DNA of 64,000 bases, taken from the NCBI GenBank assembly GCA_963804955.1, contig CAWDSQ010000007.1, forward strand, positions 288,001 to 352,000, in the 5' to 3' direction. Made by a program: the position numbers and the translations under genes. Below, in pieces: positions 2,990-23,431 of the stretch (positions are counted from its first letter, which is position 1; every line of letters begins with the position of its first letter). The notes under the pieces are model-generated. The model had not been told where the DNA came from, searched no databases, and was given only the letters and a program-made list of their open reading frames with translations. The stretch comes from an uncultured delta proteobacterium. GTDB taxonomy: Bacteria > Desulfobacterota > WTBG01 > CAIYCZ01 > CAIRTM01.

Positions 2990-3030
2990 TTGACTTACAT
3001 CAATGATAATTTCTGATGCGTCGCTATAAT
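2990..3030 (+). promoter_or_regulatory. CRP/FNR-family (HcpR-like) box TTGAC-N4-ATCAA plus TATAAT -10, upstream of HPP gene
   Basis: TTGACTTACATCAA at 2990-3003 and TATAAT at 3025-3030; site centre at about -40.5 (class II geometry). Confidence 0.6.
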
Positions 3031-3080
3031 CAATACATAGACTGTCAAACGATTTTTAAAAAAACAGCCGGGGCACAAAC

Positions 3081-3885
3081 ATGGGCGATACCAAAACGAC
3101 TGCTGCGAAAAAAGCCGAAGACCTTTCGGACAGCGATATCTATCAGGCTATGGAAGAAATGTCGGGATATGTGGATATTACGCTGGAGGATTTCAGGGAG
3201 ATATACCGGCATGCCTACCAGCATGCCCACAAAAGTATCCTTGGCACGATCCGCAGATCAAACAGAGGTTGTGCCCGCGGTTCCCTGCGGCAGTGACTAT
3301 CAAAAAACCGTGCCGCCTGCCATGCCGGCAGGCTTGTGCCCGGCTGTAAAAAACTATTTTAAAAAAATGCAGGGCTCGGAGCACAGCCCGCCCCGAGTCG
3401 GGTTAATGGAAATATGCTGGTCATGGAGCGGGGCTTTTTTGGGAATAGCTTTAGTCGCGTACTGCAACTTCACGGTTCTTGACCAATCTGACCTGCTGCT
3501 GCTTATCGGATCGTTTGGCGCTTCGGCGGTCCTGATCTACGGCGCCATTAAAAGCCCGCTGGCTCAGCCCCGGAACCTTATCGGCGGACATATTCTTTCC
3601 GCTGTTATCGGCGTTGCCTGCTACCAGTGCTTTTCTTCCAACCCCTGGCTTGCCTCCGCACTGGCAGTGGCAACGGCCATAGCCGTCATGCATGCAACCA
3701 AAACGCTGCACCCGCCCGGCGGCGCGACCGCCCTCATAGCCGTTATCGGCAGCGAGCAAATCCATAGCCTGGGCTATCTTTACGCGCTTATTCCCGTGGG
3801 CTTCGGAGCTCTTCTGATGCTGGCAGTTGCACTCGTGGTCAACAATATACCTCATTCCCGGAGATATCCGGAATTCTGGATATAA
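3081..3885 (+). CDS. HPP family membrane protein with N-terminal soluble extension (frameshift near 3240)
   Basis: SFGASAVL, SPLAQPRNLIGGH and TKTLHPPGGATAL motifs; N-terminal LSDSDIYQAMEEMSGYVDITLEDFREIY in another frame. Confidence 0.88.
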
Positions 3886-6321: not shown

Positions 6322-7287
6322 TCATTCCGGCTTCTTTTTATCACACAACCCCGGATACAGCTTTTGAGAGCACTCAGGACAAATGCCATGAGAAAAATCA
6401 GCATCTGTTCTTTCGCTGATATAGTGCTCAAAACGCACCCAGGCCTGCTGGTCCCTATAATCTCCATCCTCAACCCTAATCTTTCCGCAGTTGCAGCAGA
6501 CCGGCAAAAGGCCCTCCAGAGTCTTTATTTGCAGCAGCGCATCCTTCAACGCAGCAATGCCCGCAACAAGCTTGCTGCCGGAAAACAAGACAATGAACAA
6601 ACTTATAATCAAAATAAAAATGTGCCCGCCGATAAGCCGCAGCTTCATTTTTTCTATTGCTGCAATAAAAGGAGCATAGGAAAACGATACACTGATCCCC
6701 CCTCTGATATCCCCAACTTTATAGCCCTGTTTTGCATGACAGTTCAGACATGATGCGTCTGTTATCAAAGGCGCCATATACCGGAAGAAGGGGGGGGCGC
6801 CTGATTCATCAAGGATAGAATCCTCTCTTCCGCCCTTTTCAAATCCTTCAAGCACTTTTTGCTCCCAATCAGTTGGCTTATTTACAGGGTTAACTGGTTT
6901 AGCGCTCGTAATGCGCAGCTGAATGCCTTTCTTCCGGCGCAACAACTCGGATATCTGCCGCGTCATAAAGGCTGGATTTATTTTTGTAAGCGGGCCATTT
7001 TCTGTCGTTATGTCACGATCTGGGCTATCAAGATAAGGATTGGGCCGTGTTTCTCCATGTACCGGTGCGTATACGCCGCCATGAAAAGCATTCCATTCCC
7101 GGGCAACAACAATAGTCTCATAAACAGAGCGGGCATTCTGAAGAGCCAACTGCTTATACTCATCTCCAATGTTTTTTATGTTAAAAAAAAGGGAACCCCC
7201 TATCCCGGCAAAAAGGATAAGGCAGACAAAAAGCATAAACCTTCTTGCATCAGAAACAGTCTCAAAAGTCTTTATGCTCGACACCAT
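6322..7287 (-). CDS. DUF3365/Tll0287-like heme-c sensor protein with C-terminal Cys-rich (zinc-ribbon-like) domain
   Basis: Two TM segments; WNAFHGGVY, TKINPAFMTRQISE, RITSAKPVNP, CLNCH heme motif, GDIRGGISV; tail LLPVCCNCGKIR...FSHGICPEC. Confidence 0.85.
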   Translation of the reverse strand: MVSSIKTFETVSDARRFMLFVCLILFAGIGGSLFFNIKNIGDEYKQLALQNARSVYETIVVAREWNAFHGGVYAPVHGETRPNPYLDSPDRDITTENGPLTKINPAFMTRQISELLRRKKGIQLRITSAKPVNPVNKPTDWEQKVLEGFEKGGREDSILDESGAPPFFRYMAPLITDASCLNCHAKQGYKVGDIRGGISVSFSYAPFIAAIEKMKLRLIGGHIFILIISLFIVLFSGSKLVAGIAALKDALLQIKTLEGLLPVCCNCGKIRVEDGDYRDQQAWVRFEHYISERTDADFSHGICPECSQKLYPGLCDKKKPE

Positions 7288-7306
7288 GCGGCACGCTCAC
7301 AATAAA

Positions 7307-8501
7307 TTATTTCAGCCTGGCGGCAAAATCTTTCCCGAACTGTACGCAGTCTTCCGTACTTTGAATATCGGGCATCCAGTTTGACCGAATGCCGTCATTC
7401 AACAATTCAAAACCGCTCTCCCGCAGGCTTTCCGTTATAATTTTCACCGACTCGCCGCTCCAGCCATAACAGCCGAAAGCGGCTGCTTTCTTCTTTTTTG
7501 AATGCCAAGGCCCTTTATCATTTCAAGCAGCCCGGCCATGGCAAACAGTATGCCCCGGTTGATGGTGGGCGAGCCGGCAAGTATTGCTTTTGACCTGAAT
7601 ATCTCGGTTATCACGTCGTTCTTGTCCGAGCGGGAGATATTATAGAGCTTCACGGCAACTGCTCCATCGGCCTCGGTAATGCCACTGGCCAGGGCCTCGG
7701 CCATTCTGCGCGTGCCCTCCCACATGCTGTCATAGACTATGGTGATCTGGTTCTCCTGATAGTCGGCGGCCCACTGCTGGTACTTCTGCACAATCTGCAG
7801 GGGGTCTGTGCGCCAGATAACACCGTGGCTGGGGCAGATCATGTCAACCGGCAGACCAAGGGCAAGCACGTCTTTTATTTTTTTATCCACCATCATGTTA
7901 AATGGCGTCAGGATATTTGCATAATACTTGATGCACTCCTGATACAGCTCTGCCTGATCAACAAGATCATTATACATAAGCTCCGAGTTGCATAATGATG
8001 GCCGAAAGCGTCATTGCTGAAAAGCACATTGTCGCGGGTGAGATAGCTGAACATGGTGTCGGGCCAGTGCAGCATGGGCGCTTCGACAAAGATCAGATCC
8101 CGGCTGCCAAGGTTGAGCTTGTCGCCGGTCTTGACGACCTGAAAATTCCAGTCCTTATGATAATATCCCTTAAACGATTTCAGACCGTTTGCCGTGCAGT
8201 AGATCGGCCTGTCAGGTATCTCCTTCATAAGCTCTGGAAGCGCCCCGCTGTGATCGGGCTCGGCATGATTGGCTATGACATAATCAATCTTCTCCAAGGG
8301 CAGCACTGTTTTAAGATTTTCAACAAACTCTTTGCCGAATCTCGCCCATACCGTATCGATGAGTGCTGTCTTTTCATCCTGAACCAGATATGAATTATAT
8401 GTTGAACCCCGGTGCGAGGAATACTCCTCGCCATGAAATTTGCGGATTTCCCAGTCAATCTTGCCGACCCAGGTAATGTTGTCTTTAATTTTAAAGCTCA
8501 T
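7307..8501 (-). CDS. fprA: Flavodiiron protein (FprA/Roo; NO or O2 reductase), frameshifted
   Basis: [29 protein letters not shown] and PSHG diiron motifs; flavodoxin [21 protein letters not shown]; ends [10 protein letters not shown]. Confidence 0.92.
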
Positions 8502-10314: not shown

Positions 10315-13096
10315 CTATAGCCTACTGGTCACTGGAAAACACAACTTTTTCCAACCGGCTCTGTCGCTGCGGTTGCTGCTGCCGGCACGCAGCGTCTTCA
10401 GCAGGGCAAAAATACCCGGACGGGCGGCAACGGCGTTGTGGAGCGTTGCAGTGCCGTCTGCAGCAATATCCTCAATTTTATAATAATATTTAATGCCGCT
10501 TAGCGCTCCCCTGTCTTCATATACATACGAATCACCCTCACCGCCCGCTACCGGTGGCGGCAATCAGCTCGTCATTTATCTTTTTAAACGTGCCGTTCTT
10601 GCCGACTGCACGATACACATTAAAGCCCGAAATATCATTCTCGCGGGCCGTCGTCCACTTCAGTGTCACCTTGAACAGTCCCGCCTGAGCGGTAAACGCG
10701 GCAAGGCTCACGTCCTTGAAATGATCGATGGCCGCAATGCTGTCGTCAAGCAGGCGCTCCATATAGCCGGGGTTGTGTATGCCGAAGCTGCGGTCATTCA
10801 GAACAAGGCTGAAGTTCAGATAGGCATGCTTGAGAACCTCATCGGTCGACTCCTCGATAAAGGGCAGATTGCTGCCGCGGTGGCAGGTTGCGCATTTGCC
10901 GGGCTGGAACGGCGGCATAAAGCCGCTGTTGGCCGTTTTCAGGCTCTGCTCAAGCTCTTTGAGCTTGGTCTTGAGGCTCGACTGCAGGCCGTTGCGGTCA
11001 AAGGTGTCAAGGCCGGGATGGCACTGCTGGCACACCGTTATATTGAGCATATCATCGGCTGTGCCCGGATCGCCGTCCGGGCCCACATCGCGCATCCGCA
11101 TGCCGTGGCTGCCCACAATGCGAATGCTGTTGTTGTCCGTAGCGGCAATATCCCCGGCCATATGGCACAAAACGCAGCCCTTGGTCATTATGGTGCGGGT
11201 TTTTTTCTTCCTGATACTCGGAGTAATCGCCCCAGTGATAGCCATTACCGATCTCATCGGCTGTGCCGGTATAGGTCGCGTTCTGCCATTTCTTTTCATG
11301 GCAGGTCACGCACAGCTCGGCGCTGGCCTTGCGGGTGCCGGAGGGGTTTTCAGCTGTCTGCACATGGGGATCATGGCATACGTCGCAGCCCACATTGGGC
11401 GTATCAGAGGGCACATCGGTGCTAAGCATGGGATAGCGGAACTTGTCGAAGCTTTTGCGGGAGTTTGCCGCGCCGATGAACCCCTGCGTGTAATGGCATT
11501 TATAGCAGTTGCCCCGAAGGGCGGATGACACTTCGGCATGGCCGAAGGCCAGCGGGTCTGAGTGGCGCGATTTCTGCCACTGGGCAAACTCCTGGTGGCA
11601 GGTGCCGCACAGGCCGGGCCAGTGGGTTATGGAAATGCGCGGCGGGATCGCCCTTATGCAGGCTGCCCGGACCATGGCAGGTTTCGCATCCTACGCCGGC
11701 TCCGGCATGCTTGGTGTCTTTATAGGTTGCGTAGGTGTCGCCGTGGCATTTGGCGCAGGCCTCCGTACCGATGTCCTCTGCAATGTACACGGTGACAGTG
11801 GCCGGCTGGCTCATGTCGCCGGCATCGCCCGTGACGACAAGACTTGCCGTAAACATGTCGCCACTTTTCGCATCGGCAGGAACCATAAACCATGTATTTT
11901 CAGACGACGCATTATCAAGAAGGCCGGTGCGGTCAGTCCCTGCGCTGTCCGCAAGCGTCCAGGCAAAACCGAAATCAGACTGGCTCCAGTCGCCGTTCTT
12001 GTTTCCGTAAACATCAAACAGCGGGCTTGCCGTCTCATGGCTGTAGGCTCTCGGGTTGTAGTCCTCCGGCGACGGCATATTATTGTCTTCGCCCCAGCCC
12101 CGCAGATACACCTTGTCTCCGGGCTTGACAGCCCTCAGGCCCTTTGTCTCGGACAGAACCGTTCCGTTATAAATGAGGGGCAGTTCAGAGGGGCCGGGAA
12201 TGACGGAGGGGAATGCCAGGGGCAGATCATTTACCATGGTAATGGTATCGATCGCCTCGCTCCCCACGCCCTTGCTGTCGATAATCATCATGGCGAAGGT
12301 GTAGTCGCCGGGAAGGGTGGGGATAAAGCTGGTGCTCGATGATTTTATCAGCTCGGCGCCGTCGGGCTTATCAACCAGGGCAACATAAATTGTATTCAAA
12401 TATTTCAGAAGAAGATTGCTTGGATCAAGCCCAACCGAATTGCCATAGAAGTTCTTGGTTGGATTAATCTTGAAGCGCAGGGATGTTCTGCCTTTTTTTA
12501 TGCTGAAATCACGCAGGACAGCGTCGCCTGCGGCAAGAGGCAAGTCTTCTGAGACCTGATAATAGCTATCTGCAACCGCACGTATGCTGTAATCCCCCTC
12601 AGATGCCGACAGCTCGTACTGGCCCAGGCTGTCCGTATGGGTTGCCGCAACAGTTTCCATGGCTCCCAGCCTTTCTTCAACCAGCGCCACCATGGCGCCG
12701 GCAACGGGTGCGCCTTGTATATCGGTTACCGTGCCGCTGACAGAGACCGATTTTTTTATGGGCATGCTGACCTGCGTCGTTGCGCCGGTCTCTACCCAGA
12801 TGAAACCGGTGCGGCCGGTGCCGTATTTGTCTTCGGTATAGCCCGCAGCCGTGACCGTCACGCTGTAGTTGCGGTAGGGAATGATATCGGTGAAAAGCAC
12901 GGTGCCGTTATCATCGGTGACTGCGCTGTAGTTGCCCGGCTGCATGAGCACCGTCGCGCCTGCAACCGGGCTCGGAACTGTAAAAGTCCTTCACCGACAC
13001 CTGCACGCTGCCCGGGGTGTACGCATGGGCTGCGCAGAAGGACATAAGCATCAGCACTGCGGCGCACATCATTTTCATTGTCGTTCTCTTCAGCAT
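10315..13096 (-). CDS. Large exported multiheme (9 CxxCH) cytochrome c with N-terminal carboxypeptidase-regulatory/Ig-like domains and C-terminal FN3-like domain; split into 5 frame segments
   Basis: Signal peptide (CAAHA); SGTVTDIQGAPVAGAMV; hemes CAKCH, CETCH, CGTCH, CYKCH, CDVCH, CVTCH, CVLCH, CQQCH, CATCH; DRSFGIHNPGY; VTLKWTTARENDISGFNVYR...YYYKIEDI. Confidence 0.85.
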
Positions 13097-13252: not shown

Positions 13253-13758
13253 TCAGAAACATCCCGATACCGCCCTGCTCTGTGCCGCTTCAGAAACATC
13301 CCGGCTGACATGTGGCAGGCCGAGGGAGTCGGCAAGGCGGCAAATTCTGGCATAAAACTCCGCAGGAGGCAGGCCGGAAACAATGCTTCCCTGCAGAAGT
13401 GCTGTTTCCGCTCTTGCCGCCTGACCATAATTAATCGCCGCTGCCATATAGGCTGTTACCAGACACAGCGCTTCAAGGTTCTCCTGAAGCCGTGGATCAA
13501 CATGCAGGCGGCACTGCTGCTCCGCACCCCGGCCAGCAGGGAACGGCTCGGCGAACTGATGCGCTTCCAGGCCTTCACGGCTGAACACAAGCTCCGTCGG
13601 GATAGCGCAGGCAGTGCGGATCAGTGAGAAATCTGTGCAGATTTGCCGGATTCAGCCCCTGCCCAAGCGCATGCCGTGCCCGCAATGCCGCGCAGCGTGC
13701 ATGCTCGGCAAGAGCGCTGCTGAATGCAGTCACTGAAGCTAACGTCTGTGTCGGCCAC
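13253..13758 (-). CDS. Hypothetical protein (reconstructed over frameshifts)
   Basis: GGGAGAG RBS plus GTG at 13758; joined ...SALAEHA...FLTDPHCLRYP/TELVFSREGLEAHQFAEP...LHVDPR...AYMAAAINYG...FYARICRLADSL. Confidence 0.55.
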
Positions 13759-13872: not shown

Positions 13873-15310
13873 CTACGGCTTTTTTATCTCCTTTTGAGGC
13901 TCGTGCTTCTTTGCCATAGTTCCGCCCCCTGATGCATTCAACCATTTATGATTATCGGTTTTCAGCAGCTCGCTGATTTTCTGTTGCAGTTTGCCTGCCG
14001 CCTCTTTTTTGACCGGATCATCTGAATGCAGTCCTTTTTCCGCCAGTTCCTCAAGCTCGGGGAGAAACTCCGTATAGAAATTACGACCGACCTCATAGGT
14101 TCCGTGCCAGTGAGTATAATCAGGCGCCATCATGGAAGCTCCGTGCCGCGCCCGGCGGCCTTCATGATGCCAGAGCTCAAACCAGACAAAATCAAGCTTG
14201 CTTGAAAACTGCGGTTTCTTTAACAGCGGCTTGGCAATCTCCATAAGAGCCGCTCCCGGCTTTGCAAATTTATCATGATACAGTTCGATAAGGGAATCAT
14301 ACTGTATATAAAAATTGTCCACCCAGGGCTTGGCATGACAGCTCATGCACACCTCCTGCATGCTGCTTCGCCTTTTCTCCCAGCCGATCTTTGCGGTTTC
14401 AAGCCCCAGCTTTTCATCGGCCGCCTCCGGCCGTATGGACAATACAGGCCTGTTGTTCCAGCTGATACGCAGGCCCACGTCATGGGTGACCGGCTGCTTG
14501 ATCGTTGCGCTCATATGACAGGTTGCGCAGGTCGGCCCGGCGCTGTAATCTTCGCCCGGCACCCACTTGGAGTTTTCCATATTCATCTTGTCGACATTGG
14601 CTCTGAAGGCAATGCCGTGCTTTGATTCATTGTAAATTTCCATCTGAGGGTGATCAGGGCCAAGGTGGCACTTGCCGCAGGTATCCGGAAAGCGGGCCTG
14701 GGCCGCAGAAAACATATGCCGCGAATGGCACGCGGAGCAGGATCCCTCTGAGCCGTCAGGATTAATCCTGCCGATCCCCGTGTTGGGCCAGGTTGCCGGG
14801 TCAAGCTTGCCGTTTTCCAGCACTTTCACCTCGCTTCCATGGCATTGCCAGCAGCCGTTTACTGCGGCTGATGAATTGCCGCCCGGAAAACCCGGCGTTT
14901 TAAAAGCCCTGTTGCCTTCAACGACTTCAGCCAGGGTATTGTCAAGGGAGCCGAGAATCCTGCCTGCCTTTGCATGATGAGACCCGGCAAACTCCTTCAC
15001 TTCCTGCTCATGGCAGCGGCGCGCAGTCGCGCGGGCTCACAATAACCGCTATGATCTGGCCTTCATGCTTCTGCGCATCCTTGTCTCCGGGCTCAGCCTT
15101 GTGACATTCATAGCAGCCCACATTGCCGCGAAAATGCTTGCTTGCGCCCCACTGCTCATAGATGACGGGTGTTTCTTTCTTATGGCACTCAATACATTTT
15201 TTCGATTCAGCCGACAGCTCGGTCAGCGTATAGCCGGCAACCGACGTGCCTGCCGCAACCTGCGCCACAAAAAGCAGTACCGCAACCAGTGTACCGATAT
15301 TTTTTATCAT
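13873..15310 (-). CDS. hao: Octaheme hydroxylamine oxidoreductase (HAO)-family cytochrome c (frameshift near 15015)
   Basis: GGGAGAG RBS and signal peptide; 8 heme motifs CIECH, CYECH, CARCH (across the slip), CWQCH, CSACH, CGKCH, CATCH, CMSCH; CHLGPDHPQMEIYNESKHG; WHHEGRRARHGASMMAPDYTHWHG. Confidence 0.9.
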
Positions 15311-15336
15311 CGCACCAGCTCTCCCTTTATATAAAG

Positions 15337-16560
15337 TTATCCTGTATGCACCGTATGCTTGAACTCGCCTGACAAAATCGGCACGGCAAGATGGACCATC
15401 CATGAATACAGTAGAAATTCCGAAGGCCCATATGCCGATGCAGATCCATGTTTCATTCCAGGTGGGAAAGTACTCAACAATCTCCCCCAGCGGGGTCGGC
15501 AGAAAACCGGGAACAATCAGCCCCATGCCCTTTTCGATCCAAATCCCCAGAAAAGCCAAAACACAGGCGACATTTAATAAGCTCATCTTTCTGGCCAGGG
15601 GCGGAACAATTAAAATAAAGGCCGCGACTATTTCCGCTGCAATGGCGGACCATATCCACGGAACCAGCGCAACGTGACCGTGCAGGCCGAACAGCAGGTA
15701 GCGGGCAGCGCTGGTATGGACGGAATCAGAATAAAACTCTTTAAACACCTCGCATCCCAGCAAAAAAAGATTTACCAGCAGCGATACGGTTACAACCTGG
15801 CGGAGCATCTGCAGCGCCTCATCACGTATCGTGTACTTTGTGTACCGCCGCACGATCTGAAAGGCCACAATCATGAGGCCCGGCCCTGCGGTAAAGGCGG
15901 ACCCGATAAACCGCGGGGCGACAATAGCGGCATTCCAGAACGGGCGGCCCACCAGGCCTACATACAGGAAAGCCGTTACCGTATGAATGCTGATGGCCCA
16001 TAAAATAGCGATCAGCACAAAGGGCAGATACATCAGCGCTGCCGGCTTTCGCTGCAGGTATTTCATGTACAGCAGATACCCGCAGATGTGCACATTCAAA
16101 AAAAGGTAACCGATTAAAACAACAACATCCCAGGAAAGCATGGATATGGGAAAGTTGAATACGCCGATACCCGGCACCAGATGCCAGAAGCGGTCTACCC
16201 TGCCCAGATCAACGTTAACAAACAGCAGGCACATGATGATGGCGGCAATGGCAAGCAGTTCGCCCAGAATGACGACATCATGGAGATGTTCGTTTTTATA
16301 AATATATGCGGGGATTACCAGCATGACCGCTGCTGCCGCAAGGCCGACAATAAAGGTAAAATTTGCGATATAGACGCCCCAGGACACCTGATCCGTCATC
16401 CCGGTTAAGGCCAGACCGAAAACCGTCTGCCGGGCATAGGCATGAAGGCCGATGAAGCAGAGCACGGTCAGAAAAGGTCATCCAGCAGTAATACCGCGGG
16501 CTGCCGTAGAAAGCTCAGCCGTATCGCCCTCCACAAAAACATCTGGTAACTGCGCATCAT
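15337..16560 (-). CDS. NrfD/PsrC/DsrP-family quinol-interacting membrane subunit (frameshifted at both ends)
   Basis: GMTDQVSWGVYIANFTF, VDLGRVDRFWH, SMLSWD, WAISIHTVTAFL, WIEKGMGLIVPGF; about 10 TM. Confidence 0.9.
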
Positions 16561-16571
16561 GATTGATCCGT

Positions 16572-17545
16572 CTACTTGTCGAAAAAATAATAAAACCGGG
16601 GTATGGTGCCGAGTTCTTCTTTCAAGAATATAGACGCGTTTTTCCCTTAAAATATAATTAACAGGGCTTGCGGGATCGGCCACATTGCCGAACACCCGCG
16701 AGCCTGTGGGGCATACTTCCAGACAGGCAGGATACAGGCCCTGTGCGGACACGCCTGAGGCAAAAGGTGCACTTTTCGATCACGCCCCGCGGTCGTGATG
16801 CGGTTGCCCAGATAGGCCATATCCAGGGTAATGTCCTCCCCGGGCAGAGAGGGCCTGCTGAAGTTGAACCGGCGGGCCCAGTACGGACATGCGGCCTCGC
16901 AGTAGCGGCAGCCGATGCACCAGTTGTAATCAACGACAACAATCCCGTCAGGCTCCTTCCAGGTGGCCTTCACCGGGCACACCTTGGTGCAGGGCGCCTT
17001 TTTACACTGCTGGCACTGAACCGGCATATAGTATTTGTTTTTTTGCGGCACTGTTTCAGGATTGAAGTAATGGTCGGATTTTTCCGGATCAATTGACCCC
17101 TTTTCCATTTCAAGAACCCTGATGTACTGGATCGCCGGATCGCGGGAGGTGTTGTTTTCCTTCATGCAGGCATACACGCATCTCCGGCAGCCGATACACC
17201 GGCCAAGATTCAGCGCATAGGCATATTCCACTCCGCTCAGGGGCTTAGGGTCAGCCACCGTTGCCGTAACGCCGTAATCAGCCTCAATCTCTTTTTCGAT
17301 GCGTCGCAGTATGTTGTTCATCTCATCAGGGGTGAGGCGCTCATAATGGTTTTGCAGAAACTCATCCAGGCTGATCGTGCCGCTGCAGACTCACGAAGGG
17401 GCGACAGCGCCCACCCCAACGCAGCTGCCGCGGCGGTTGCATTGACGCCTATTTTCATAAAGCTTCGCCTGGTGAGGGGGGCGGTGGTTATCTGCTCGAT
17501 TGAGCGGATTCCGGCGCCCTGAGCCTTGCGCACGTTCACGCTCAT
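16572..17545 (-). CDS. Tat-exported 4Fe-4S polyferredoxin subunit (NrfC/DsrO/HybA family), frameshifted
   Basis: TRRSFMK Tat motif; CIGCRRCVYAC, CQQCKKAPCTKVCP, CIGCRYCEAACP, EKCTFC, PACLEVCPTGSRVFG. Confidence 0.9.
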
Positions 17546-18171
17546 TCATGCAGGGCCCCTTTCTTCAGGTGCGGCGAGCCGGCGCTTACCGGTGGCGGCA
17601 TGGGCGCCAAAGCCTTAAAAGCCGGCTGATGCGGATCATGACATTGAATGCAGACAAGCTTTGTTGACGGGCCCTGCCGGATATCCCAAAAGCCGTTCAT
17701 CCTGCCATGAACGCCCTCTTTCCAGTCGCGATATATGGTGCCGTGACATTTTGCGCACAGGAGGACCGGCTTGTCCTGAGGAATCTCGCGCCCCTCGTGA
17801 TCCACGTATGATCCCCGTATGTCCGGGTGATGACAGGCCAGACACCCCAGGTCCTCGCCGTGATTGAGCTTTATATGTGTATGTTCGCCGGCGGGATTGT
17901 TTGATCTAACGGGCGTCTTAAAATCTTTATGGCATTCACTGCACTGGTAGGTAAAGCCGGTGCGATCAAGGCTCAGCGGTTTTGGCAGCCCCCGCACCGG
18001 CGTCGTATCCAGCCAGTTTTGCTGCCCGGCAAAGCTCAGGGGTTTTTCAGATGATGCAGCGATTGAGGGCTGATCTGCTCCCATGACTGGATGGAAGACA
18101 AAAAAATCCTCCAAAAACAGCCAGCATGCTTACATAACAAAAGATATCTTTCAAAACAGATCACCGGGCAT
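17542..18171 (-). CDS. Tetraheme cytochrome c (start uncertain)
   Basis: CSECH, CLACH, CAKCH, CIQCHDPH; stop overlaps the next start (ATGA). Confidence 0.85.
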
Positions 18172-18290: not shown

Positions 18291-19164
18291 TCAGGCAAGG
18301 ACTTCAACGCCGACCTTGCGGACCATTTCATGAAACGATATTTCTTTTTTATCAACAGGATACTGTCGATATATGTCCAAGCGTTTTTCAAGAATATGCA
18401 CAACCCCTCCAGCATCGGTCTGTTGAGCAACGGTCCGGGCAATCCGGGGATGCCGCGACCCCGTGCCGCCGGCGACGACCTTGTAGCCTTTCTCCTTCGT
18501 GAAAATAACTTCTTTTTTACATTCTTTTTCACAGCCTCCGCACAGAACGCACCGCGCATAGTCAATGACGGGGTTGCCGTCCTGAAGCGTTATGGCGCCT
18601 TCAGTGCAATACCTGACGCAGGCCTGACATTGGGTGCAGCCCTCAGCTCTTGACCGCAGGCCGCAACTGGCAGATGATGCCGAAATCGTTAAAATACGGG
18701 GACATGCAGCAGTTGGGGCAGCCGATAATGGCTATGCGAAACACGTGGTGCGACATAAGGGGGGTGCGCGCCTTTTCAATAACAATACGGGTAGCGTTAA
18801 GCTGCCTGAGCTTTTCCCGCAGGGGCACAAGCACGGCAAGCATCATCTCGCGCTTCTCGGCCGTGCAGGCGCCGTACTTTGCCGGACAGAGCTCGATCTT
18901 GAAAAGCTCACCGTCATCATCTTCAAAAAAAGCATCAGGCAGGCCGACATCCTCGCCCCGTCCCATGCGGCGAACCACCTCGGTCGCCTCAGGCCCAAAG
19001 ACGCGCCCATAGCCTTTTTCGGTTGCTTGAGCAATTGCTGCCGTGACCTTAGCCAGCCCCTTCTGCAGCGCCCGGCGCTCTGCATCAAGGCGCACAAACT
19101 GCGCCATCATGGGCGGTACGGCAATATCTGCAAGTATGTCTTCAGCCTCTTTTTCCCATTCCAT
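18291..19164 (-). CDS. Nitrite/sulfite-reductase-like 4Fe-4S protein with N-terminal PCP-reductase-like domain and inserted 2x[4Fe-4S] ferredoxin (frameshift near 18645)
   Basis: MEWEKEAEDILADIAVPPMM...AERRA; CPAKYGAC; FRIAIIGCPNCC...DFGI; second frame CTQCQACVRYC, CVLCGGCEKEC, GYKVVAGG..SRHPRIA; ends KVGVEVLA*. Confidence 0.8.
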
Positions 19165-19194
19165 GCTTTCATGCTCCTGCAGCGTGCCGATGTT

Positions 19195-19923
19195 TTATTC
19201 CTGCCGCCGCTCCACAATATCGCCGCCAACACTCACAACAACGGTTTCCAGCGGCACTGATGCGCCTGCCGCCTTCAGGCCCGCCTTGACGATCTGCGGC
19301 ATGCCCTGACAGCACGGAACCTCCATAACGACAACCGTGACGCTCTTTATATCATTCTGTTTGAAAATTTCTGTAAATTTGTCAACGTACAGCTCCCGGT
19401 CGTCAAGTTTCGGACAACCCATAAGCAAAACCCTGCCCTGCAGAAAGTCGCGATGAAATCCCGCATGGGCAAACGCCGTACAGTCCGAGGCGACCAGCAG
19501 GTCGGCGCCCTTGAGAAACGGCGCATGGGGAGGCACAAGGCGCAGCTGAACCGGCCAGGTGGAAAGCGCCGATACGCTCACTGACGGCTCCGCTGCAAGC
19601 CCGGCTTTCGGCTCAATATGCCGCACAGCAGCCGACGGGCATTGACACGAGGGGCCGGGGCTGCCTGAACGAGCGCTGTGAACTTTCAGATGCCGGGCAA
19701 CAGCCTCCTCGTCAAAATCGTCGGCTTCACGCACAACAATTTTCAGCGCGTCCTGCGGGCACTCGCCGATGCAGTTGCCCAGGCCGTCGCAGAAAACATC
19801 GGAAATCACCTGCGCCTTGCCGTCAACAATGGCGATGGCTCCTTCGGCGCAGGCGCTCACGCAATCGCCGCAGCCATTGCAGCGCTCCCGATCAATTTCG
19901 ATGATGTTGCGCTTTACTTTCAT
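19195..19923 (-). CDS. hcp-associated 4Fe-4S ferredoxin-like protein (FrdX type)
   Basis: CNGCGDCVSAC, CDGLGNCIGECP, WPVQLRLV, DCTAF, GCPKLD, MEVPCC. Confidence 0.88.
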   Translation of the reverse strand: MKVKRNIIEIDRERCNGCGDCVSACAEGAIAIVDGKAQVISDVFCDGLGNCIGECPQDALKIVVREADDFDEEAVARHLKVHSARSGSPGPSCQCPSAAVRHIEPKAGLAAEPSVSVSALSTWPVQLRLVPPHAPFLKGADLLVASDCTAFAHAGFHRDFLQGRVLLMGCPKLDDRELYVDKFTEIFKQNDIKSVTVVVMEVPCCQGMPQIVKAGLKAAGASVPLETVVVSVGGDIVERRQE

Positions 19924-19946: not shown

Positions 19947-20742
19947 TTACATACCGCACATAAAGTTTAGAAAAAAATCTGCTACTGTCTCAAGCCTGCG
20001 AGGAACCTGCAGCTCAAAAACCTCCCTGGCAACACGTTTTCCGGAGGCTGTCAGCATACGCGATTCAATAAGCGCCGCCAGCTTCTCCGGCTCCCGGGGC
20101 TTCTCAATATCGCCCTCCTGAATATTGACGATCAGGTCGGCATCATAGAGGACCTTGAAATTGGATGTCTCAACCGGGCCGCGGATGATGGTGGTGGCCG
20201 ATGATGTCGCACACCTCATCGGTGAGCGCGGGCTCAGCATGCAGCCCCATCAGGATGCCCCGCGCCGTGAGGGGGCCGAGCTCTTCCTGGTATTTTGCGG
20301 CAGTGCTCCCGTAGAGCTTCTCGGCATCCTTGATGCCGATGTCATGGAGATAGGCGGCTGTCAGCACCACGGCCGCGTCGGCCTCCTGCCCCTCGGCTAT
20401 CTTTTCTGCAAAATGAGCCACCTTTTCGGCATGCCTGATGCGGCGCTCGTCGTCGCCGAAAAACGCCCGCATTTCGCAGGCCACGCGCTCGGCAAAAAGA
20501 TGCTTCTGCTTTGCAAGCACTTCAGGCGGCATGTCCTTAAGGCACTGCGCCGCAAACTTGCAGTACGTGGCGCAGCCGAAGTCAAGGTTCGGGTTTGTAA
20601 CCCTGGCCCCGCAGCCCTTGCACCGCCGCACGGCATCGTCCTTGAAAAACTCCACGGTCTTGCCGCATGCGGGGCATGGGGCTTCAAATATGTCTGTCGG
20701 TTTCCAGTACCGTGTGTCCTGACCGGGGCATTTCATTGGCAT
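19947..20742 (-). CDS. HD-domain phosphohydrolase with N-terminal Cys-rich finger (frameshift near 20175)
   Basis: CPGQD...CPACG...EFFKDD...CKGCG; RIRHA, AYLHDIG, IGHHH, LYDAD. Confidence 0.85.
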
Positions 20743-20769
20743 CTCTCCGTTAATTCAAGATTCAGGATT

Positions 20770-20797
20770 GCAGGGGCGTATGGCCATACGCCCCTGC
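20770..20797. repeat. Perfect 28-bp palindrome (REP-like) just 3' of hcp
   Basis: GCAGGGGCGTATGG|CCATACGCCCCTGC; resembles GTAG-type REP hairpins. Confidence 0.6.
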
Positions 20798-20846: not shown

Positions 20847-22479
20847 TTATCCCAGTATCGCCTTCAGGTCCGCATCGGGCGTGCTGATAGGCTTGATATC
20901 AAAAGTCTTTACAAGCACATCCAGCACCCCCGGCGTAATGAATGCCGGCAGTGACGGCCCCAGACGAATGTCCTTTATGCCGAGATGCAGCAGGGTCAGC
21001 AGTATGGCCACGGCCTTCTGCTCATACCATGACAGCACCATCGACAGGGGCAGATCATTCACCCCGCAGTTGAAAGCGCCTGCCAGGGCCACGGCAATCT
21101 GCACCGCAGAGTAGGCGTCATTGCACTGGCCGATGTCAAGCAGGCGCGGAATCCCGCCGATATCGCCAAGGTCTTTGTCGAAAAACCTGAACTTGCCGCA
21201 GGCAAGGGTCAGCACCACGCAGTCTTTGGGCACCTTCTCCACAAATTCGGTGTAGTAGTTGCGGCCGGGCTTGGCGCCGTCGCAGCCCGCCACCAGAAAG
21301 AAATGCCTGATGGCCTTGCTCTTTACCGCGTCGATCACCGCTCCTGCCACGCCCATGACAGCATTGCGGGCAAAGCCGACCATGACCGATTTGCCCTCTT
21401 TGTCCTCGGTGAATCCGGGCAGCTCCAGCGCCTTTTTGATAACCGGGGTATAGTCATGCCCCGTGATATGCGCCACACCCGGCCAGCCGACCATGCTGGT
21501 CGTGAAAATATTGCCCTTATAGCTCTCGGCAGGCCGCTGGATGCAGTTGGTGGTCATAAGGATAGCGCCCGGAAATTCCGTAAACTCCTTGAGCTGGTTC
21601 TGCCATGCCGTGCCATAGTGGCCGTAAAAATGGCTGTATTTTTTCAGTGCCGGATAGCCGTGAGCAGGGCAGCATCTCGCCATGCGTATACACAGTAATG
21701 CCCTTCCCCTCGGTCTGCTTCAAAAGCTCCGCAAGGTCCTTCAAGATCATGGCCCGATACAAGAATCGCTTTGCCTTTCTTTACACCCAGGGGCACCTTT
21801 GTGGGCACGGGATGGCCGTAGGCGCCCGTATTGGCCGCATCCAGAAGCTCCATCGCGCGCAGGTTGATCTCGCCGGTTTTTAGAGCAAGGGCCACCCACT
21901 CATTGGCGCCAAGGCTCTGTATTGAAGGGGGCAGCAAGGGCCTCATACAGAAAATTATAGACCTTTTCATCCTCCTGCCCGAGCACCTGTGCATGATCGG
22001 CATAGGCTGCAACGCCCTTGATGCCGAACAGCACGATATGCTGGAGCGACAGCAGGTCGGCCGGAACCGAGGGGTCTGACTTGAGACCAACGGCAGCGCC
22101 CTGCTCGATCAGGCCGTTCAGGTCAGCCGCGGGTTTAAAGGCAGCAGCGGGCTCCGTTATAGTCGGCGCCGGTTTTGGCCTTGAGCTGTTCGCGCAGCTC
22201 CACTGCCTTTTTGATATAGGCCGGAAAACGGTCGGGGTCAAAATTCACGTTTGTGAGGGTGGCAAACAGGGCCTCGGCGGTAAATACGTCCTGGCCGGGA
22301 ATTTTAACGCCCTTCTTGATACCCTCAAGGGCATAAAGCGCAAGGCCCCGCAGGGCATGCACGAGCAGATCCTGAAGTGCCGCCACGTCGGGAGATTTGC
22401 CGCAGACGCCGCCGACGGTGCAGCCTTCGCCTTTTGCGGTCTGTTCACACTGGTAACAAAACATATTTTTCTGTGCCAT
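20847..22479 (-). CDS. hcp: Hybrid cluster protein (hydroxylamine/NO reductase); multiple frameshifts
   Basis: [71 protein letters not shown]. Confidence 0.96.
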
Positions 22480-22578: not shown

Positions 22579-22620
22579 ACTATAGCCGACCCGGGCCCGA
22601 GAAACCTTGACGCAGGTCAA
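22579..22620 (-). promoter_or_regulatory. HcpR box TTGAC-N4-GTCAA and -10 (TATAGT) of the hcp promoter
   Basis: TTGACGCAGGTCAA at 22607-22620; TATAGT on minus at 22584-22579; centre at -41.5, canonical class II CRP/FNR position. Confidence 0.85.
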
Positions 22621-22741: not shown

Positions 22742-23431
22742 ATGGACATTGCAAAACAGCTCTCCCATATTCCTCTGTTTCAGGGCCTTGAGCCACAATA
22801 CCTGCAAACCCTTGCCCGCATCGCCGTCAAAAAGTTCTTCAAACGGGGTGAAACCGTATTTGCCGAAGGCGACCCCGGCACGGGTTTTCATATCATTACG
22901 ACGGGGCGTGTCAAAGTTTACAAAACCTCGCCCGACGGCAAGGAGCAGATCCTGCACATCATGAGCCAGGGAGAGCCTTTCGGCGAGGTGCCGGTATTCA
23001 CGGGCCAGCGTTTTCCAGCCTATGCCGAAGCTATCGCCGACACCTCTACGCTGTTCATACCCCGCAATGACTTTATCAATCTCATCCGCACCGAACCGTC
23101 GGTGGCGCTCAGCATGCTTTCCGTTCTCTCCCTTCGCCTCAAGCGCTTCACCAGCCTTATAGAAGATTTATCGCTGCGGGAGGTGCCGGGCAGGCTCGCC
23201 GCGTATTTATTATACTTAAGCGAGCGCGACAAGGGGACGGATGACATCAATCTTGAAATTTCCAAAACTCAGCTGGCAAGCATACTGGGCACAATACCCG
23301 AAACCCTCTCCCGCATTCTTGCCCGTATGACCAGGGAAGAAATCATTGAGTCCGACGACAAGCGGCATATCCGCATCTGCAACCGCACTGCCGTTGAAGA
23401 ACTTGCGGCCGGCGAGCGCCGGCTTGCCTGA
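22742..23431 (+). CDS. hcpR: Crp/Fnr-family transcriptional regulator HcpR
   Basis: cNMP-like domain (GRVKVYKTSPDGKEQIL, FGE); HTH LASILGTIPETLSRIL; divergent from hcp. Confidence 0.88.
   Translation: MDIAKQLSHIPLFQGLEPQYLQTLARIAVKKFFKRGETVFAEGDPGTGFHIITTGRVKVYKTSPDGKEQILHIMSQGEPFGEVPVFTGQRFPAYAEAIADTSTLFIPRNDFINLIRTEPSVALSMLSVLSLRLKRFTSLIEDLSLREVPGRLAAYLLYLSERDKGTDDINLEISKTQLASILGTIPETLSRILARMTREEIIESDDKRHIRICNRTAVEELAAGERRLA

Follow-up and report, generated by a model that had tools for sequence, protein, structure and literature searches.

A four-gene cassette of an octaheme hydroxylamine oxidoreductase-family cytochrome and a DsrOP-like module in an uncultured delta proteobacterium: a candidate nitrogen-oxide reductase

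Described systems and the four-gene cassette

A four-part locus built around a homolog of hydroxylamine oxidoreductase (HAO) was described in 2017 in Thermosulfurimonas dismutans and Dissulfuribacter thermophilus, where NrfA is absent and nitrite reduction was proposed; the authors, Slobodkina et al., also raised a sulfur alternative (PMC5276818). In 2022 the locus was reported in T. marina and strain F29, again with nitrite reduction as the proposed activity (PMC9676032). Here we describe a cassette of this type in a stretch of 64,000 nucleotides from an uncultured delta proteobacterium (assembly GCA_963804955.1, contig CAWDSQ010000007.1, positions 288,001 to 352,000; hereafter the window). 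Its gene content, cofactor motifs, conservation, context and regulator box are reported below, and on balance we think that it probably encodes a quinol-fed periplasmic reductase of nitrite, nitric oxide (NO) or hydroxylamine.

Like the Thermosulfurimonas and Dissulfuribacter locus, the one in the window combines a multiheme cytochrome homologous to HaoA with an NrfD-family membrane protein, a further cytochrome c and a 4Fe-4S protein of the periplasm, a likeness taken from the descriptions in the papers and not from a comparison of sequences. However, the published locus is located within an 11-gene nap cluster, whereas in the window no napA was found and the cassette follows hcp and iron-sulfur (FeS) protein genes behind an FNR-type box. 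An earlier note on this DNA, made from the sequence alone, had left it to be checked whether the cassette was already characterised. The same four-gene locus and the same hypothesis are indeed published, so that the cassette as a discovery is not new, but the locus type is in print as an uncharacterised one, and no biochemical study of it was found in the open-access full-text literature.

All four genes of the cassette were confirmed, on the minus strand, in the region 13873-18171:

17542..18127, minus strand: tetraheme cytochrome c (4 CXXCH; N-terminal hydrophobic signal or anchor)
16572..17545, minus strand: predicted Tat-exported 4x[4Fe-4S] subunit, NrfC/DsrO-like (RRSFMK, Fer4 Pfam families, four Cys groups)
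15337..16560, minus strand: NrfD-family quinone-interacting membrane subunit, DsrP-like (Pfam NrfD, NCBIfam DsrP)
13873..15310, minus strand: octaheme HAO-family cytochrome c, similar to the octaheme cytochrome of Ignicoccus hospitalis (IhOCC) and apparently without the cross-link Tyr (Pfam Multi-haem_cyto)

The tight linkage claimed in the earlier note holds, and the intergenic gaps of 11 nt (between the FeS and NrfD genes) and 26 nt (between the NrfD and HAO genes) were found to be exact by script. The ATGA overlap of the cytochrome and FeS genes, also claimed there, is present in the window as written, but the relatives overlap by 8-14 nt instead, and with a probable extra base at about 17532 the start of NrfC cannot be placed with certainty.

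The source genome is a metagenome-assembled genome of 36 contigs, 87% complete, and therefore a missing gene is reported here as not found, without proof of absence. It was compared with 41 relatives of the same class, among which L013 to L018 label individual loci (L018 comes from another genus of the same family); the intact proteins of L014 served as reference for frameshift-aware alignment and for scoring against curated models. The tetraheme cytochrome is 62% identical to its L014 homologue and gives weak matches to the NrfB, NrfH and cytochrome c7 families of Pfam and NCBIfam; in its family alignment the four heme motifs are invariant, and the N-terminal hydrophobic stretch and a C-terminal PLPGPNTLRMG-like motif are conserved. 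The FeS subunit has the twin-arginine motif RRSFMK in the window, matches Fer4_11 and further Fer4 Pfam families, and carries four Cys groups, which are seen both in the window read-through and in the intact L014 protein. For the latter, DsrO was the top curated model, at 167.4 bits and thus below its cut-off of 200, while NrfC (TIGR03149) was not reached, with 107.7 bits against a cut-off of 377.6. The membrane subunit matches Pfam NrfD (PF03916; E 9.6e-37, 127.7 bits against a cut-off of 25.8) and passes the NCBIfam DsrP model, with 370.6 bits in the window and 408.7 in intact L014 (cut-off 350); about 10 hydropathy peaks in its 405 aa suggest some ten helices. The HAO subunit matches Pfam Multi-haem_cyto (E 3.4e-23) and, weakly, a hydrazine dehydrogenase model. 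Judged by curated models, the membrane module resembles DsrO/DsrP more closely than NrfC/NrfD of E. coli. The NrfC/NrfD-like module of the earlier note is therefore right as to the NrfD family and the Tat-type FeS subunit, but its nearest models are others.

The NrfABCD system of E. coli follows the same logic, with an NrfD-type membrane subunit, a Tat FeS subunit, a small multiheme cytochrome and a periplasmic multiheme reductase. Its catalytic head is the pentaheme CXXCK enzyme NrfA, whereas the head in the window is an octaheme HAO with CXXCH motifs only, and the small cytochrome has four hemes in the window against five in E. coli. The FeS and membrane subunits of the window fit DsrO/DsrP better, the former lying far under the curated NrfC model, and the count of about ten helices agrees with DsrP, which has ten, and not with E. 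coli NrfD, which has eight (PMC8076601). NrfABCD is under FNR-family regulation (PMC12285233). The DsrJOP part of DsrMKJOP resembles the cassette in that DsrO and DsrP are the nearest models and a small multiheme cytochrome stands alongside; however, dsrA was not found in the genome (best score 25.5 bits against 392.85), and no dsrMK is present among the annotated neighbours of the cassette, no dsrMK search having been made. The DsrOP-like sequence together with the failure to find dsrA suggests that the module serves another head.

The layout in which an octaheme reductase is wired through NrfC/NrfD-type subunits is known from MccACD/SirACD (PMC8076601), but the octaheme protein there is of the MccA clade and that of the window is of the HAO clade. 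The same review lists 15 NrfD-type complexes, none of them HAO-linked, and the words "hydroxylamine" and "octaheme" have 0 occurrences in it; PMC11896075 and PMC10732223 deal with other NrfD clusters. In Nautilia, Campylobacter and Caldithrix (the reverse-HURM proposal) a HAO that is cross-link-free like that of the window, epsilon-Hao, goes with a NapC/NrfH-type tetraheme cytochrome. Reduction of nitrite and hydroxylamine by this enzyme has been proposed or shown, and its gene often adjoins nap (PMC5317091, PMC8042395). There the quinol dehydrogenase is a single NapC/NirT protein, while in the window it would be a three-subunit module of NrfD, FeS protein and cytochrome. The octaheme nitrite reductase of Trichlorobacter ammonificans is a CXXCK enzyme (PMC12142623) and so belongs to a different family.

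The octaheme subunit: active site and distribution

Read through its single frameshift, the HAO of the window contains eight CXXCH motifs and no CXXCK, and the eight are invariant across 40 cassette HAOs. Of the proteins with solved structures, IhOCC (4QO5) is nearest, at E 4.4e-49 in a single-sequence search and 2e-71 when a profile of 13 sequences is used; it likewise has eight CXXCH and no Tyr-heme cross-link and is cited as a nitrite reductase (PMC9250108). It is the top match in both sequence and fold; on the other hand it is archaeal, has other partners, and shares only 25% identity with the window protein (Foldseek). It is followed in the Protein Data Bank (PDB) ranking by HAO of Nitrosomonas (NeHAO), Kustc0458, KsHOX and HDH, with profile matches of about 6e-28 for 1FGJ/4FAS and 1.7e-26 for 6H5L. 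No MccA chain was among the PDB sequence matches at E<=1e-3, and no direct comparison with MccA was made. A Foldseek search with a heme-free AF2 model gave 10 matches at E<=1e-3, all of the HAO family and ranked as in the sequence search, with IhOCC first; their TM of 0.25-0.35 is low because the heme-free model is poor.

Residue conservation was counted over 201 members of the HAO family. In the profile alignment the distal Asp267/His268 of mature NeHAO correspond to D219-H220 of a PDHP motif, and this pair is invariant (201/201); taken with the CXXCH of heme 4, these active-site residues are retained by 200-201 of the 201 relatives. The distal Tyr334 of NeHAO aligns to an Arg, present in 200 of 201, so that the pocket should differ from those of both NeHAO and NrfA.

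The cross-link Tyr of NeHAO is Tyr467 in the mature protein and Tyr491 in the precursor. Full-length HMMER profile alignments end at NeHAO residue 379, short of this site, and a profile of the C-terminal region searched against the PDB (E<=10) recovered only IhOCC (E 0.047) and designed helical proteins, with the Tyr467 region of NeHAO unaligned; the NeHAO precursor was therefore read from the supplement of PMC9250108. Tyr491 could be assigned to the Y of GGW-T-Y-T-E-G-W-G because Asp291, His292 and Tyr358 fit the published numbering. We then aligned the two proteins by eye, anchoring on the aromatic-Thr pair and the following Gly (Y398-T399-H400-W401-H402-G403 in the window). W489-T490-Y491 of NeHAO fall on Y398-T399-H400 of the segment MMGPDYTHWHG; without a one-residue shift, the cross-link Tyr would align to W401. 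The same three places are occupied by W-T-T in IhOCC and by V-S-W in Kustc0458. At position 400, 189 relatives have His and 12 have Gln, and 200 have Trp at position 401; Tyr is found at neither place (0/201), while position 398 varies, with Tyr in 174 and Ile, Phe or Trp in 27. These residues, matched by eye, support the assignment of the window HAO to the cross-link-free (reductive) kind. The earlier note had read this segment as reductive, a reading that would have fallen with a cross-linking Tyr at the P460 position; none was seen at 400 or 401. In published work the key site is His in reductive HAOs and Tyr in oxidative ones (PMC12758564), and cross-link-free HAOs, once purified, reduce nitrite, NO and hydroxylamine but fail to oxidise hydroxylamine (PMC8042395). 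PMC10728637 says nothing about the cross-link.

The clade is widespread. In a 90%-identity protein collection it was matched by 7,996 of the 8,000 scored candidates, the best 120 of which score at least 805 bits and bear names such as hydroxylamine oxidoreductase; this amounts to about 8,000 or more protein clusters. The clade is present in at least 599 stretches or species genomes of about 185,600 species genomes. The best 80 loci from one-genome-per-species contigs were taken as a distant set. They come from Planctomycetota (including anammox metagenome-assembled genomes), Verrucomicrobiota, Omnitrophota, Hydrogenedentota, Bdellovibrionota, Myxococcota, Acidobacteriota, Gammaproteobacteria, a cable bacterium and others. 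All three partner genes adjoin HAO in 30 of the 52 loci whose flanks extend for 4 kb or more on each side (25 upstream on the same strand, 4 downstream, 1 on the opposite strand); one locus has a partial module and 21 have none. Six of the 28 loci with short flanks also have all three partners, giving 36 of 80 overall. Among the 21 loci without the module, NapA/NapB stand beside HAO in 4, a NapC/NirT cytochrome is directly downstream in 3, all from cultured Gammaproteobacteria (Agarivorans, Aliagarivorans and Neiella, which thus have the epsilon-Hao-type layout), one has an HPP gene together with a NIR_SIR/Fer4 gene, and one has hcp; the neighbours of the others are unrelated or unnamed. Taken over the clade elsewhere, hcp accompanies HAO in 2 loci.

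Closer to the source genome, a HAO-family match was found in 22 of the 41 class relatives and in 7 of 16 genomes of the same family, and the cassette is intact in 6 of 12 relatives' loci. The cluster is therefore patchily distributed in the lineage, while the synteny that the earlier note proposed to look for extends across many phyla.

Nitrogen enzymes, upstream genes, regulator box and frameshifts

In a profile search of the genome, none of NrfA, NrfH, NirS, NirK, NapA and NarG was found over its cut-off, and the window HAO was the only HAO-family gene found. The NrfA model PF02335 gave only stretches of about 19 bits, in a cytochrome-TPR fusion on contig C20, and TIGR03152 gave no match; the candidate (G000:C20:197022-199277, L011:955-3210) was discarded, as it is a large multiheme cytochrome with TPR/HEAT repeats and not NrfA. 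The check for nrfA called for in the earlier note thus returned no recognisable gene. NrfA was not found in the six cassette-bearing relatives either; among the 41 genomes searched it is present in one, which has no HAO match. Two molybdopterin oxidoreductase genes of the genome (G000:C13:110009-111391 and C7:184738-186775) have an in-frame TGA, possibly selenocysteine, or split frames, and score below the NapA/NarG cut-offs.

The genes around the cassette are the following:

22742..23428, plus strand: CRP/FNR-family transcription regulator, diverging from hcp (Pfam cNMP_binding and HTH_Crp_2)
22607..22620, unstranded: FNR-type palindromic box TTGACGCAGGTCAA, 128 nt upstream of the hcp start, between the regulator gene and hcp
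20850..22479, minus strand: hcp, hybrid-cluster protein (tblastn with L018/L016 Hcp, 64-74% identity over two frames)
20524..20745, minus strand: small Cys-rich protein (tblastn, 72% identity to the 113-aa gene after hcp in L018)
19207..19923, minus strand: 4Fe-4S dicluster (ferredoxin-like) protein (Pfam Fer4; 60% identical to L018:3095-3820)
18294..19182, minus strand: NIR_SIR/Fer4 protein, a small sulfite/nitrite-reductase-like FeS protein (tblastn with L018:3900-4793, 56-66%, two frames)
13301..13751, minus strand: fifth gene, for a conserved cytoplasmic protein of about 149 aa (tblastn with the genes after HAO in L013-L016, 45-59%)

On the minus strand the order is hcp, small Cys-rich gene, Fer4 gene, NIR_SIR/Fer4 gene, the four cassette genes and the fifth gene, with no long gap upstream, in line with the hcp block which the earlier note had placed next to the cassette. 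From hcp to the cassette the gene order is identical in L018, in which HAO is followed by a gene for a flavodiiron protein, and in L016 hcp and a CRP/FNR regulator gene are near the cassette. The Hcp proteins of L018 and L016 match Pfam Prismane (E 1e-170); in the window hcp is broken by at least one frameshift, near 22200. The NIR_SIR/Fer4 gene has one frameshift near 18646, and its L018 homologue matches both Pfam NIR_SIR and Fer4. The small Cys-rich protein has no Pfam or NCBIfam family. The regulator is 71% identical to the one beside the cassette in L016 and reaches no curated NCBIfam equivalog. As judged from this arrangement, the operon appears to start at hcp, behind the FNR-type box. 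The window also contains a flavodiiron gene (metallo-beta-lactamase-like and flavodoxin domains) at 7313-8501 on the minus strand, with two frameshifts, the homologue of which directly follows HAO in L018.

In L013, L015, L016 and L017 a TTGAC-N4-GTCAA box precedes the cytochrome gene by 74-103 nt, and in L016 and L018 one precedes hcp by 96-109 nt; another is just upstream of the regulator gene in L016, and no such box is present in L014. Such a box therefore stands ahead of the cassette or of hcp in 5 of the 6 relatives with the cassette, as it does in the window. In the 80 distant loci a relaxed form occurs 24 times in 1.12 Mb against about 4.3 expected with uniform base frequencies, many of these boxes being directly upstream of the cytochrome gene or of HAO. 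The count in the window alone (2 against 1.57 expected) is not significant, so that the case for the box rests on its position and on the relatives. It was found by pattern search; an inverted-repeat search of four intergenic stretches did not report it, because its arms are short. We read the cassette as being under FNR/CRP-family control common to hcp. The window has a second FNR-type box, TTGACTTACATCAA, with one mismatch, at 2990-3003, directly upstream of an HPP-family membrane gene (3010-3882, plus strand). The HPP family includes nitrite transporters; an HPP gene also follows HAO in L060.

Several reading frames of the cassette are interrupted. Frameshift-aware alignment to L014 places four events in the FeS gene (amounting to five extra bases), three in the NrfD gene and one in the HAO gene, at about 15019 within the third CXXCH, and finds no in-frame stop in any of the three. 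The probable extra bases are at 15019, 15415, 16475, 16512, 16626, 16744, 16796 and 17384/17390. To these we compared contigs from four other metagenome runs, 85-99% alike to the window, which lack one base at no fewer than 10 distinct places inside the four genes: 15021, 15414, 16471/16476, 16509, 16624/16626, 16739, 17384, 17390, 17532 and 18098, the last of them in the tetraheme cytochrome and seen in two runs. Among the length differences listed, all are one-base insertions in the window with no deletions, and several fall in short T or C runs. Apart from the breaks, identity to the intact L014 proteins is 62-81%, and identity to relatives, at 74-81%, is normal. Breaks of this type also affect hcp, the nearby flavodiiron gene and the NIR_SIR and fifth genes. 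The indels suspected in the earlier note are thus present in the sequence. Since intact relatives exist and the contigs of four metagenomes lack the extra bases at the same places, the insertions are probably assembly (consensus) errors, and the organism probably has working genes. Along the window, open reading frames of at least 300 aa cover 12% of 16-24 kb against 95-99% of 32-48 kb.

Proposed function, rival readings and the fifth gene

In the scheme we propose, the ten-helix NrfD/DsrP-type subunit would take electrons from menaquinol, and the Tat-exported four-cluster FeS subunit and the tetraheme cytochrome c would relay them. A HAO of the trimeric type and of the cross-link-free IhOCC/epsilon-Hao kind would reduce nitrite at a five-coordinate heme 4, and probably NO and hydroxylamine too, the product being most likely ammonium. 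In the lineage an FNR/CRP-family regulator would control transcription of the cluster, jointly with hcp or in parallel to it. The contacts between subunits and the direction of electron flow are predictions, as are substrate and product. A reductase is suggested by the activities of purified cross-link-free HAOs, by the linkage to a quinol module, by the nitrogen neighbours of the clade, by hcp and the flavodiiron gene, and by the FNR box. As no nitrate reductase was found in the lineage, scavenging of nitrite or NO, or respiration of external nitrite, is most likely and is favoured over full nitrate ammonification. The earlier note had proposed that HAO replaces NrfA as the head of an NrfBCD-like chain. 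A HAO of the reductive kind, a conserved cassette and the failure to find nrfA agree with this; the module, however, is DsrOP-like, and the function is one that we infer.

Several observations speak against this proposal. Enzymes of the HAO/OCC type are promiscuous in vitro, and no activity, expression or complex data on the cassette were found in the open-access literature. The module scores as DsrO/DsrP, and the NIR_SIR neighbours, joined by cysteine synthase in L013 and L015, fit sulfur chemistry too. NapA was not found in the genome nor in 5 cassette-bearing relatives that are 93-100% complete, which leaves the nitrite source unaccounted for. The Tyr assignment was made by eye on motifs, and the AF2 model of HAO has a mean pLDDT of 71.2, its residues 194-286 being too poor to read the active site. 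The frameshifts cluster at roughly 7-24 kb of the window while 32-48 kb is clean, and no HAO match was found in any of the four genomes of the same genus (G001-G004, 76-90% complete).

If the frameshifts were real, the hcp-to-HAO cluster would be a decaying pseudogene block from which nothing functional is made. At least ten frameshifts in four genes, with more in hcp and in the NIR_SIR, fifth and flavodiiron genes, would agree with decay, as would their concentration in one part of the window, and the result in the four same-genus genomes would fit loss in the genus. We nevertheless consider decay quite unlikely and prefer consensus errors, because every event seen is a one-base insertion and never a deletion, in-frame stop codons are missing, and identity to the intact relatives is as high as that of the relatives among themselves; moreover, unrelated neighbour genes are broken too, and several breaks are in short T or C runs of a 36-contig, 87%-complete assembly. 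Given a working enzyme, membership of the HAO family and the presence of Y398 two residues ahead of the cross-link position might suggest an oxidative hydroxylamine or hydrazine dehydrogenase that feeds the quinone pool. This appears extremely improbable: the residue at 398 is Ile, Phe or Trp in 27 of the relatives, Trp in IhOCC and Val in Kustc0458, positions 400 and 401 are never Tyr, and the setting is FNR-type and hcp-linked, with no ammonia monooxygenase context.

The substrate could also be a sulfur compound (sulfite, tetrathionate or polysulfide), so that the complex would be an equivalent, with a HAO as its head, of MccACD/SirACD or octaheme tetrathionate reductase (OTR). This alternative was named by the first describers of the locus (PMC5276818), and the layout of MccACD, with its octaheme cytochrome wired to NrfC/NrfD-type subunits (PMC8076601), would be a precedent. 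The NrfD-like subunit passes DsrP, DsrO is the top model for the FeS subunit, L013 and L015 have NIR_SIR genes and cysteine synthase next to the cassette, and the window has a NIR_SIR/Fer4 gene directly upstream of it. The catalytic subunit, however, belongs to the HAO/IhOCC clade and not to those of MccA or OTR (clades as in PMC9250108), dsrA was not found, the clade is elsewhere accompanied by nap, NapC/NirT, hcp and HPP genes, and the window context is one of hcp and a flavodiiron gene, so that sulfur reduction seems to us improbable. It is unlikely, too, that HAO makes NO or hydroxylamine instead of ammonium, in the manner of Kustc0458/HAOr or of reverse-HURM, with cytoplasmic Hcp and flavodiiron protein finishing the reaction. 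Kustc0458, which is cross-link-free, reduces nitrite to NO (PMC8042395), hcp is just upstream in the same direction, the flavodiiron gene follows HAO in L018, and Arg replaces the distal Tyr334 of NeHAO in nearly all relatives (200/201). However, PMC9250108 cites IhOCC, the nearest relative with a solved structure, as an octaheme nitrite reductase, and epsilon-Hao enzymes reduce nitrite and hydroxylamine (PMC8042395); the product itself is not readable from sequence.

A more far-reaching form of the nitrite/NO reductase proposal, which we regard as doubtful, would make the complex an energy-conserving, possibly ion-translocating menaquinol:nitrite/NO oxidoreductase, composed of a DsrOP-like module and a HAO head. 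It would be induced with Hcp through a CRP/FNR regulator that senses NO or anoxia, would take part with cytoplasmic Hcp in a two-compartment route from nitrite to ammonium, and would have the fifth protein as assembly factor. If so, ammonification or NO/hydroxylamine turnover unseen by nrfA-based surveys would be widespread. Surveys of nitrate/nitrite ammonification mostly count nrfA, and the quinol module is present in over half of the assessable loci of the HAO clade. Should the complex prove to be a nitrite or NO reductase, a considerable part of the nitrogen oxides turned over anaerobically in soils and sediments would be assigned to the wrong genes or overlooked. To the published locus the window adds context, namely the co-location with hcp and a common FNR-type box, the DsrOP-like module, the conservation of a fifth gene, and the failure to find a nitrate reductase as partner.

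The fifth gene has one frameshift near 13600, and its product lacks a signal peptide and matches no family of Pfam or NCBIfam. Homologues follow HAO in four relatives (L013:10366-10815, L014:9540-10022, L015:3581-4027 and L016:3796-4245), the gene is present in 19-20 of 36 cassette loci, and the family has 312 representatives in 1.84 billion proteins. The model of the protein (pLDDT 92.9) gives zincin-like matches of the ImmA/IrrE/minigluzincin kind (VIA, Z 5.9-8.4, in the middling range); there was no Foldseek match at E<=1e-3, and the family lacks the HExxH motif. The protein may be an assembly factor. Two further genes on the minus strand are near the cassette and flavodiiron region, one for a Tll0287-like protein (6325-7296) and one for a protein with a CarboxypepD_reg domain (11503-12990). 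Between hcp and the small Cys-rich gene, at 20770-20797 of the window, there is a perfect loopless palindrome of 14+14 nt, GCAGGGGCGTATGG/CCATACGCCCCTGC.

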